Shown here: one piece after another, positions 3,001-6,000 of the stretch
How positions within the stretch are numbered: position 1 is the first letter of the stretch
Layout: each line of letters opens with the position of its first letter
Virus record (IMG/VR): IMGVR_UViG_2690316175_000004
Reading direction: 5' to 3' (one strand)
DNA from: a virus
Lineage: Duplodnaviria > Heunggongvirae > Uroviricota > Caudoviricetes
Length of the DNA stretch: 10,128 nt
Position numbers: made by a program

Positions 3001-6000
3001 GCGACTCAGATTGGTTGCTCTGAACGGACGGTCAGACGCTACCTCAAATACCCTGAACCGCCAGCCAGAAAGACNAATCCGGTCAGCGTGGAGGTCCAGT
3101 CCGTCACCGACGGCGTGAAGGTAAAAGTGAGCCGTGTTCCTGACGGTGTTGCTGAATACAGCGTGTGGGGGCTGAAGCTGCCGACGCTGCACCAGCGATT
3201 GTTCCGCTGCGTGAGTATCCGTGAGAACGACGACGGCACGTATGCCATCACCGCCGTGCAGCATGTGCCGGAAAAAGAAGCCATCGTGGATAACGGGGCG
3301 CACTTTGACGGCGACCAGAGCGGCACGGTGAATGGTGTCACGCCGCCAGCGGTGCAGCACCTGACTGCCGAAGTCACCGCAGACAGCGGGGAATATCAGG
3401 TGCTGGCGCGCTGGGACACGCCGAAGGTGGTGAAGGGCGTGAGCTTCCTGCTCCGTCTGACCGTAACAGCGGATGACGGCAGTGAGCGGCTGGTCAGCAC
3501 GGCCCGGACGACGGAAACCACTTACCGCTTCACACAACTGGCGCTGGGGAACTACAGGCTGACAGTCCGGGCAGTAAATGCGTGGGGGCAGCAGGGCGAT
3601 CCGGCGTCGGTATCGTTCCGGATTGCCGCACCGGCAGCGCTGTCGCGGATTGAGCTGACGCCGGGCTATTTTCAGATAACCGCCACGCCGCATCTTGCGG
3701 TTTATGATCCGACGGTACAGTTTGAGTTCTGGTTCTCGGAAAAGCGGATTGCGGATATCAGGCAGGTTGAAACCACAGCACGCTATCTTGGCACGGCGCT
3801 GTACTGGATAGCCGCCAGTATCAATATCAAACCGGGCCATGATTATTACTTTTATATCCGCAGTGTGAACACCGTTGGCAAATCGGCATTCGTGGAGGCT
3901 GTTGGTCAGCCGAGTGATGATGCATCCGGTTATCTGGATTTTTTCAAAGGCGAGATAGGGAAAACCCATCTGGCTCAGGAGCTGTGGACGCAGATTGATA
4001 ACGGTCAGCTTGCGCCTGACCTGGCTGAAATCAGGACGTCCATTACGGATGTCAGCAATGAAATCACGCAGACCGTCAATAAGAAACTGGAAGACCAGAG
4101 TGCGGCAATTCAGCAGATACAGAAGGTTCAGGTTGATACAAATAATAACCTGAACAGCATGTGGGCTGTGAAGCTGCAGCAGATGCAGGACGGACGCCTT
4201 TATATCGCGGGTATTGGTGCCGGTATTGAGAACACCCCTGACGGCATGCAGAGTCAGGTGCTGCTGGCGGCGGACAGGATTGCGATGGTTAATCCTGCGA
4301 ATGGCAACACAAAACCGATGTTTGTTGGTCAGGGCGATCAGATATTCATGAACGACGTGTTCCTGAAACGCCTGACGGCCCCCACCATTACCAGCGGTGG
4401 AAATCCATCGGCATTTTCCCTGACTCCGGACGGAAAGCTGACCGCTAAAAATGCGGATATCAGTGGCAGTGTGAATGCGAACGCCGGGACGCTCAACAAT
4501 GTCACGGTAAATGAAAACTGTACGATTAAGGGCATGCTGGAGGCGACTCAGGTCAGAGGTGACTTCGTTAAAGCTGTATCCAAATCATTTCCGAAACAGG
4601 CTGGTACGTGGGGTAACACGGAAACACCAAACGGGACGGTTACAGTCACCATAAGCGATGATCATAACTTTGACCGCCAGATTATTATTCCGCCCATTAT
4701 TTTTAACGGTATAGCGTATGACGATCCGGGGAGCGGAAATAACCCAGGAGGCACGCGATACACGGGTTATGGTTTTGAAGTTCGCAAAAACGGCGTATTA
4801 ATCGCATCCAGAGAAACTAAAGGTGCCATTCCCGGTAGTTACAGTGCAGTTATTGATATGCCTAGTGGTGGTGGTAGCGTCACTCTGGAGTTTAAGATTT
4901 TCCAGAAAGGCAATCAGGGGGCAGGCAATATCACCGACTGTACGGTGATTGTGACCAAAAAAGCGGCTTCCGGCATCAGTATTCGTTGAAATATTTATAA
5001 CCCCAATAAATGGCGTCAGGAATGACGCCTTTTTTATTGCAGAAAAGCGAGAGGTAATTATGCGTAAAGTTTGTGCAGCCATTTTGTCCGCAGCCATCTG
5101 TCTGGCCGTATCCGGTGCGCCTGCATGGGCGTCTGAACATCAGTCCACGCTGAGCGCGGGGTATCTTCATGCCCGGACCAACGTTCCCGGCAGTGATGAT
5201 CTGAACGGGATTAACGTGAAATACCGTTATGAGTTTACGGATACGCTGGGGCTGGTGACGTCATTCAGCTATGCAGGAGACAAGAATCGCCAGCTGACCC
5301 GTTACAGCGATACCCGCTGGCATGAAGATTCCGTGCGTAACCGCTGGTTCAGCGTGATGGCGGGGCCGTCTGTGCGCGTGAATGAATGGTTCAGCGCGTA
5401 TGCGATGGCGGGTGTGGCTTACAGCCGTGTGTCGACTTTTTCCGGGGATTATATCCGCGTAACTGACAATAAGGGGAAAACGCACGATGTGCTGACCGGA
5501 AGTGATGACGGTCGCCACAGCAACACGTCTCTGGCGCACTGACGGTTTCATCGTGGGTGTCGGTTATAAATTCTGATTAGCCAGGTAACACAGTGTTATG
5601 ACAGCCCGCCGGTTCAGGCGGGCTTTTTTGTGGGGTGAATATGGCAGTAAAGATTTCAGGTGTACTGAAAGACGGCACAGGAAAACCGGTACAGAACTGC
5701 ACAATCCAGCTGAAAGCAAAACGTAACAGCACCACGGTGGTGGTGAACACGCTGGCCTCAGAAAATCCGGATGAAGCCGGGCGTTACAGCATGGACGTTG
5801 AGTACGGTCAGTACAGCGTTATTCTGTTGGTGGAAGGATTCCCGCCGTCACATGCCGGGACCATCACCGTGTATGAAGATTCCCGACCCGGTACGCTGAA
5901 TGATTTTCTCGGTGCCATGACGGAGGATGATGCCCGTCCGGAGGCACTGCGCCGTTTTGAGCTGATGGTGGAAGAGGTGGCGCGTAACGCGTCCGCGGTG

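Follow-up and report, generated by a model that had tools for sequence, protein, structure and literature searches.

Receptor-binding cassettes of two types in two lambdoid J genes of an E. coli-type draft sequence

The window analysed here (the whole stretch of 10,128 bases, from IMG/VR virus record IMGVR_UViG_2690316175_000004) is a gapped draft sequence of E. coli type, in which two lambdoid tail-end modules, A and B, stand in series on the + strand and each carries the 3' part of a gene for the tail tip attachment protein J. The question raised by this locus is how two J copies that resemble each other upstream came to part sharply before their last 162 and 168 residues, and whether these two ends recognise different receptors. 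In this locus the Ig-like receptor-binding domain (RBD) at the C-terminus of J has quite probably undergone allelic replacement: the two copies share a shaft of phage-21 type and end in different, homologous cassettes, both most likely directed at OmpC.

The shaft/RBD joint and the homology of the two J ends

Two J copies had been recognised in the initial annotation of this DNA, and their 3' parts were indeed found at 1-1788 and 3076-4989, within modules delimited by Pfam and NCBIfam profiles. The parts on which the comparison of the two copies rests are the following.

Module A, + strand: J 3' part 1-1788, lom 1856-2455, N-terminal part of stf from 2519
Module B, + strand: J 3076-4989, lom 5060-5542, stf 5641-8724, tfa 8724-9305
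363-1788, + strand: J copy A 3' part, from J nucleotide 2055 to the stop codon, with second Ig/FNIII, shaft, beta-prism and receptor-binding domain
3076-4989, + strand: J copy B, beginning at the counterpart of lambda-J residue 529 and running to the stop codon (residues 529-1131 of PDB 8iyk_J in phmmer)
1143-1338, + strand: conserved beta-prism (CSF) segment 5' of the joint in copy A (nucleotide comparison with lambda, 434 and 21)
1339-1770, + strand: RBD cassette allele A, 1A2 / VT1-Sakai / 2G7b type (maximum chi-square breaks)
4522-4971, + strand: RBD cassette allele B, phage 434 / h434 type (maximum chi-square breaks)

Copy A matched the Pfam profiles Ig_J_second, Phage_Tail_Tip and Ig_GpJ_C and positions 685-1163 of NCBIfam lambda_TipJ, and copy B matched Ig_J, Ig_J_second, Phage_Tail_Tip, Ig_GpJ_C and lambda_TipJ positions 529-1163. 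The order is that of a TipJ protein (Ig_J, Ig_J_second, Phage_Tail_Tip, Ig_GpJ_C), with Ig_GpJ_C at the C-terminus and lambda_TipJ aligned to the end of the model.

Upstream of the joint the alignment of the two copies is gap-free from 363/3546 onwards, with an offset of 3183. Over 364-1338 / 3547-4521 they are 89% identical in nucleotides and 90% in amino acids (32 of 325 residues differ), with patches down to 73-80%; the term near-identical, used earlier for this part, was generous. The maximum chi-square method placed the left break at A1339/B4522 and the right one at A1771/B4972, with statistics of 214 and 200 that were reached by none of 2000 permutations, and the mismatch fraction rises from 0.10 outside these limits to 0.51-0.54 inside 1339-1770 / 4522-4971. 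The breakpoint of 1333/4518 proposed in the initial annotation lies within about 5 nucleotides of the left break obtained from this nucleotide alignment. Similarity resumes in the last J codons and continues through a terminator hairpin into lom, with 98-100% identity over roughly 1822-1940 (late intergenic region and 5' lom) and mostly 81-98% in the remainder of lom, one window falling to 65%.

The two ends had been described as unrelated, with only some ten final residues in common. This did not hold, as the last 162 (A) and 168 (B) residues align end to end with 42% identity (E 2e-39), with several indels inside the cassette and with conserved blocks spread across the whole domain. Both match over 134-135 of the 135 positions of Pfam PF12421 (Ig_GpJ_C), described as 'Tip attachment protein J, C-terminal receptor binding domain', with 126.4 bits for copy A (positions 2-135) and 90.3 bits for copy B (positions 1-134) at a cut-off of 26.2 bits. 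Both also align over their full length to the solved gpJ domains of lambda (8xcj) and A8 (9wca), with phmmer E-values from 5e-27 to 2e-58. An AlphaFold2 (AF2) model of the copy B tail, built from a two-sequence alignment with a mean predicted local distance difference test score (pLDDT) of 62, and of about 75-80 within the RBD, is all-beta; its top four PDB matches in Foldseek are the gpJ structures 9wca, 8xck, 8xcj and 9wcb (E 1e-14 to 3e-18, template modelling score 0.57-0.69).

The segment 5' of the joint, 1143-1338, is 82-98% identical in nucleotides to lambda, 434 and 21, except for copy A against phage 21 in the 1203-1262 window (77%). Within it, at 1156-1179 in copy A and at the corresponding 4339-4362 in copy B, both copies encode the motif QIFMNDVF, whose Phe is the counterpart of F924 of lambda J. 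This residue is the reported trigger of the prophage-encoded abortive-infection nuclease HepS, which Gifsy prophages escape with an isoleucine at the equivalent position (PMC13043305).

Allele types, mosaic blocks and the origin of the joint

To which alleles do the two ends belong? The initial annotation had called copy A lambda-like. In this domain, however, lambda J, whose end is ...SDVQVMVIKKQALGISVV, shares only 42.9% identity with copy A and 41.5% with copy B, so that the lambda, LamB-type allele (residues ~970-1132, C-terminus ...VMVIKKQALGISVV) corresponds to neither copy. The search of the copy B tail against J proteins of phages with known receptors, which the same annotation had proposed, led to phage 434, with 93.5% amino-acid identity over the RBD and 87-98% nucleotide identity in 60-nucleotide windows; copy A is 46.5% identical to the 434 protein. 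Of the phage 434 entries (GenBank OL657226/OL657227), the record compared is 434B, which departs from 434 in cI and around the lysis genes only (PMC9119081). The copy B tail is also 97-99% identical in amino acids to those of Evi, 2B8, cdtI, ev207, Ayreon, Perceval and the long-tailed Stx1a/Stx2c phages of O157, and the allele forms a discrete class, no phage record falling between 60% and 90% identity.

The copy A tail shares 92-94% of its amino acids with VT1-Sakai, 2G7b, PPompW and others, and its RBD is 69% identical to that of phage 21, 66% to A8 and 43% to lambda. It also matches gpJ 1A2, a J variant occurring naturally in E. coli prophages, which Brodel et al. 2024 (PMC11338833) joined to lambda J at residue 964. 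We located the 1A2 DNA in the supplement of that paper by a conserved upstream 17-mer and aligned it to copy A in a frameshift-tolerant manner. At least 141 of 162 residues are identical and at least 6 further positions are unreadable, the source DNA being recoded and damaged by optical character recognition (OCR); on these grounds copy A was assigned to the 1A2 type. Judged by sequence, then, copy B is the classical host-range allele of phage 434 (h434) and copy A the allele of O157-type prophages and gpJ 1A2, and both can be given these names.

How the alleles came to be attached to similar shafts was explored by comparing both copies, in sliding windows of 60 nucleotides, with phages lambda, 434 and 21 as well as the two closest complete genomes; four stretches were separated.

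Shaft, A 783-1143 / B 3966-4326: one type (87-100%) in A, B and phage 21, a second in lambda and 434, 17-70% identical to the first
Pre-joint stretch, A 1143-1338: conserved in all types
RBD: four types, namely lambda; 434 and B; A; phage 21
lom: one type in A, B and 434, another in lambda, no lom in phage 21

The shaft of copy B is 93-100% identical in nucleotides to phage 21 and 17-65% to 434, with 18-65% identity to 434 in the alpha-helical shaft and upper prism at 3966-4326. Copy B is thus phage-21-like 5' of the joint and 434-like 3' of it, a pattern that point divergence cannot produce, and lambda and 434, which have a common shaft and different RBDs, display the same phylogenetic incongruence, by which recombination is shown. 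The suggestion that the transition is a recombination joint of the kind involved in host range was therefore borne out at the shaft/RBD boundary, where a 434-type tip follows a phage-21-type shaft. The shaft and upper prism of both copies make up a second mosaic segment, of phage-21 type. From these comparisons J reads as a patchwork of at least three exchangeable blocks.

Without recombination, the tail might have diverged where it stands, through a faster rate of point mutation, through diversifying selection or through targeted hypermutation, in keeping with the selection that acts on RBD loops when lambda and phage 21 are evolved experimentally (PMC11336670). Such an origin would have to account, however, for a copy B cassette that is 95-98% identical in nucleotides to 434 next to shafts that are 17-65% identical, for an abrupt change on both sides with several indels, and for discrete identity classes with nothing between 60% and 90% for allele B; moreover, a repeat search of the window found no second copy or template repeat of the RBD region, which counts against hypermutation in place. 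We regard this explanation as having a negligible probability.

Nor is the joint likely to have been created by the assembly. The scaffold is gapped and broken in repeats, with N at 330-362, 3075 and 9527-9830, and the sequences to the left and right of the first gap cover partly the same J coordinates, so that short-read contigs across multi-copy J genes might have fused parts of paralogues. Both joints are nevertheless contiguous in finished chromosomes, which argues against a chimera at this point: FDAARGOS_943 matches copy A at 98-100% across 1143-1900 (its gpJ is 97-100% identical in nucleotides through the joint), GPEC657 matches copy B at 88-100%, and the shaft-RBD-lom continuity of copy B recurs in about 2000 other genomes. 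An assembly origin of the joint is accordingly very improbable.

In the recombinational explanation that we prefer, the RBD cassettes would be exchanged as units of about 145-150 codons, by homologous recombination when lambdoid phages infect the same cell together or reside in it together. The homology on the left is probably provided by the beta-prism segment, conserved among all alleles, that ends ...NADISG.VNAN.GTLNNVT, and that on the right by the last J codons, the terminator and lom. The cassette limits, 1339-1770 and 4522-4971, fall in a zone of both natural and engineered fusion: the fusion point engineered in PMC11338833, lambda residue 964, lies within the stretch corresponding to 1143-1338, and in a Gifsy-1 study conservation with lambda J stops near residue 964.

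Both cassettes are common. Cassette B was found in 2112 and cassette A in 3377 of 5426 complete E. coli genomes, so that at least 63 genomes carry both, and J-lom-stf modules occupy a median of three places per genome.

Receptors of the two alleles

The initial annotation had further proposed that the two copies recognise different outer-membrane receptors; at the level of the receptor protein this is probably wrong, as the characterised relatives of both copies, 434 for B and 1A2 for A, use OmpC. The receptor of phage 434 is OmpC, and lambda equipped with the 434 J binds OmpC (PMC11101478; PMC12502783); for the use of OmpC by 434, PMC12502783 cites Fuerst and Bingham 1978. As regards the 1A2 type, A8 and 1A2 delivered DNA into a lamB ompC double-deletion host only when plasmid-borne ompC variants were supplied, and 1A2 accepts EDL933 OmpC and many natural variants, not K-12 OmpC (PMC11338833). 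Phage 434 works on K-12 OmpC, and PDB 9wcb is A8 gpJ bound to EDL933 OmpC. Given that copy B is 93.5% identical to one OmpC user and copy A at least 87% to the other, both probably bind OmpC; by analogy with these relatives, the most likely difference between them would lie in the OmpC variants or loops recognised.

Different outer-membrane proteins for the two RBDs, for instance LamB for copy A and another for copy B, would accord with their mere 42% identity, with the fact that alleles of this family do differ (LamB for lambda and 21; OmpC for 434, A8 and 1A2), and with the 69% identity of copy A to phage 21, a LamB user. Yet the identity of copy A to the OmpC user 1A2 (at least 87%) far exceeds its identity to phage 21 (69%) and to lambda (43%), copy B and the OmpC user 434 are 93.5% identical, and the premise that copy A is lambda-like proved false; this possibility is in our view unlikely. 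Phage 21 was itself considered as a receptor model for copy A and set aside as too distant once 1A2 was at hand.

Several points weigh against a common OmpC assignment and against the explanation as a whole. By sequence, the RBD of copy B stands 6.5% away from 434 and that of copy A roughly 7-13% away from 1A2. In phage 21, a LamB user, one mutation in J is enough for OmpC to be used as well (PMC11336670), and fine specificity is thus not safely read from about 90% identity. The exact identity to 1A2 is uncertain, its sequence having been read from the OCR-damaged, recoded supplement, and the AF2 model of the copy B tail is of moderate quality only. Because of the N joins, finally, the two copies need not derive from a single genome in the order presented. 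That the variants found here bind something else, or have non-overlapping OmpC-variant specificities matched to the host's own OmpC, is to our judgement rather unlikely. In that event a single polylysogen would carry two host-range cassettes ready for exchange, with about 200 nucleotides of shared sequence on their flanks. No receptor data for lambdoid J alleles were found in the BASEL papers or in a 2026 receptor-prediction preprint, and no outer-membrane receptor of the PhiR (ECOR) phages is given in the SNIPE paper.

With OmpC as the target of both alleles, the RBD trimer would insert its bottom loops into the extracellular mouth of the trimeric porin and thereby open the tail, a sequence of events established for relatives: in lambda, four bottom loops of the RBD trimer enter LamB, which leads to fibre rearrangement and tail opening (PMC11101478). 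The two alleles may then accept different OmpC variants, and what distinguishes them would be strain range rather than the receptor protein.

Scaffold joins, neighbouring genes and known relatives

Whether the two J genes are truly neighbours depends on how the window was joined. It contains three N runs, at 330-362 (33 N), at 3075 (a single N) and at 9527-9830 (304 N), and the remaining features are as follows.

1-329, + strand: J fragment at a contig end, J nucleotides 1876-2204, FNIII region (blastn against five reference J genes)
1807-1826, + strand: terminator-like hairpin after J copy A
1856-2455, + strand: lom copy A, Ail/Lom outer-membrane beta-barrel, full length, 199 amino acids (Pfam Ail_Lom 1-199 of 199, E 4e-129)
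2519-2831, + strand: N-terminal part of stf, copy A (Pfam phage_tail_N positions 1-104 of 134)
2832-3074, + strand: left end of an IS21-family insertion sequence (NCBIfam transpos_IS21, Pfam HTH)
3075, no strand: assembly join from the insertion-sequence fragment to mid-J (single N)
5012-5029, + strand: terminator-like hairpin after J copy B
5060-5542, + strand: lom copy B, shortened to 160 amino acids (Pfam Ail_Lom positions 1-159 of 199)
5641-8724, + strand: stf of module B, intact (Pfam phage_tail_N, Phage_fiber_2, Collar)
8724-9305, + strand: tfa of module B, tail fibre assembly gene (Pfam Caudo_TAP)

Modules A and B are linked by the IS21-family fragment and the single N at 3075 only. The transposase is present with its first 47 codons (2932-3072), then broken at the N, and its match to transpos_IS21 is weak (E 3e-5) on account of the short fragment. 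The open reading frame 2932-4989 (685 amino acids) was rejected as an artefact, in which the transposase start reads through the N at 3075 into J copy B. With the copies joined through N runs, the side-by-side placement of the two J genes is unproven, and two copies in one locus are therefore not established; most likely, copies A and B come from two different prophages of one polylysogenic strain.

A similar caution applies to the 5' end of module A. In every one of the five reference J genes examined, the pieces flanking 330-362 correspond to J nucleotides 1876-2204 and 2055-2392, and by blastn the piece 1-329 overlaps the piece starting at 363 by 150 nucleotides in J coordinates. The result is an apparent in-frame direct repeat of 183 nucleotides around the first gap (180-274 / 363-457, 94% alike). 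A real duplication of this length in copy A was considered and is unlikely, being absent from the five reference genes, with units only 94% alike and a junction under N. Because the pieces overlap in J coordinates, the repeat is read most simply as a scaffold join; judging from sequence, the N run most likely reflects a scaffolder's joining of two overlapping contig ends from different J paralogues, and bases 1-329 may belong to another gene than 363-1788. The apparent tandem arrangement and the apparent 183-nucleotide duplication are both to be treated as scaffold artefacts.

Behind J, the stems of the two hairpins differ by paired, compensatory changes that keep the stem (GGCACCAGAAATGGTGCC against GGCGTCAGGAATGACGCC). 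The lom of copy B is without 83 nucleotides of copy A (about 2333-2415), which leads to an early end and the loss of the last beta-strands, whereas GPEC657, the closest complete genome, has a full lom of 600 nucleotides; lom copy B is thus either a pseudogene or an assembly error. The stf of module A is interrupted after about 104 codons by the IS21-family left end, and the homology of FDAARGOS_943 to module A stops at window position 2830. Module B is 96% identical in nucleotides to the gpJ-lom-stf-tfaQ block of GPEC657. Its stf contains a long low-complexity stretch rich in Ala, Ser and Thr (about residues 110-460, window 5950-7100), which gives rise to spurious long open reading frames in other frames and on the opposite strand (e.g. 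6138-6887, 6233-7000, 6269-7045). In 9306-10128, 3' of tfa, the listed open reading frames 9469-9846 and 9522-9860 consist mostly of N.

Both alleles and the phenomenon itself have been described before, and the locus is an ordinary product of phage recombination. It has little import beyond annotation: that lambdoid host range rests on exchange of the J C-terminus (h-lambda against h434) is textbook knowledge, and chimeras such as gpJ A8 and 1A2 now exploit this exchange to direct lambda particles deliberately to new targets.

Compared with known systems, allele A has its nearest solved or classical relatives in A8 gpJ (PDB 9wca, 9wcb) and phage 21 J, although these form a distinct allele class; they are 82% identical to each other and use different receptors (OmpC and LamB, respectively), a pair that marks the limit of receptor prediction from similarity. 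The RBD of lambda gpJ (PDB 8xcj, 8xck; Ge and Wang 2024) has in common with both copies the Ig_GpJ_C domain, its position after the beta-prism and its fold, and differs from them by an identity of only 42-43%, by indels at several points of the domain and by its receptor, LamB. Closer to copy A, gpJ 1A2 agrees with it in the pattern of indels and in the C-terminal 20 residues, with about 11 clear substitutions, e.g. HERKNNN against HEKEHTD. Phage 434 J and copy B, lastly, are of equal RBD length class (167-168 residues from GTLNNVT) and are both followed by a 434-type lom, while about 11 RBD residues and the type of shaft distinguish them.

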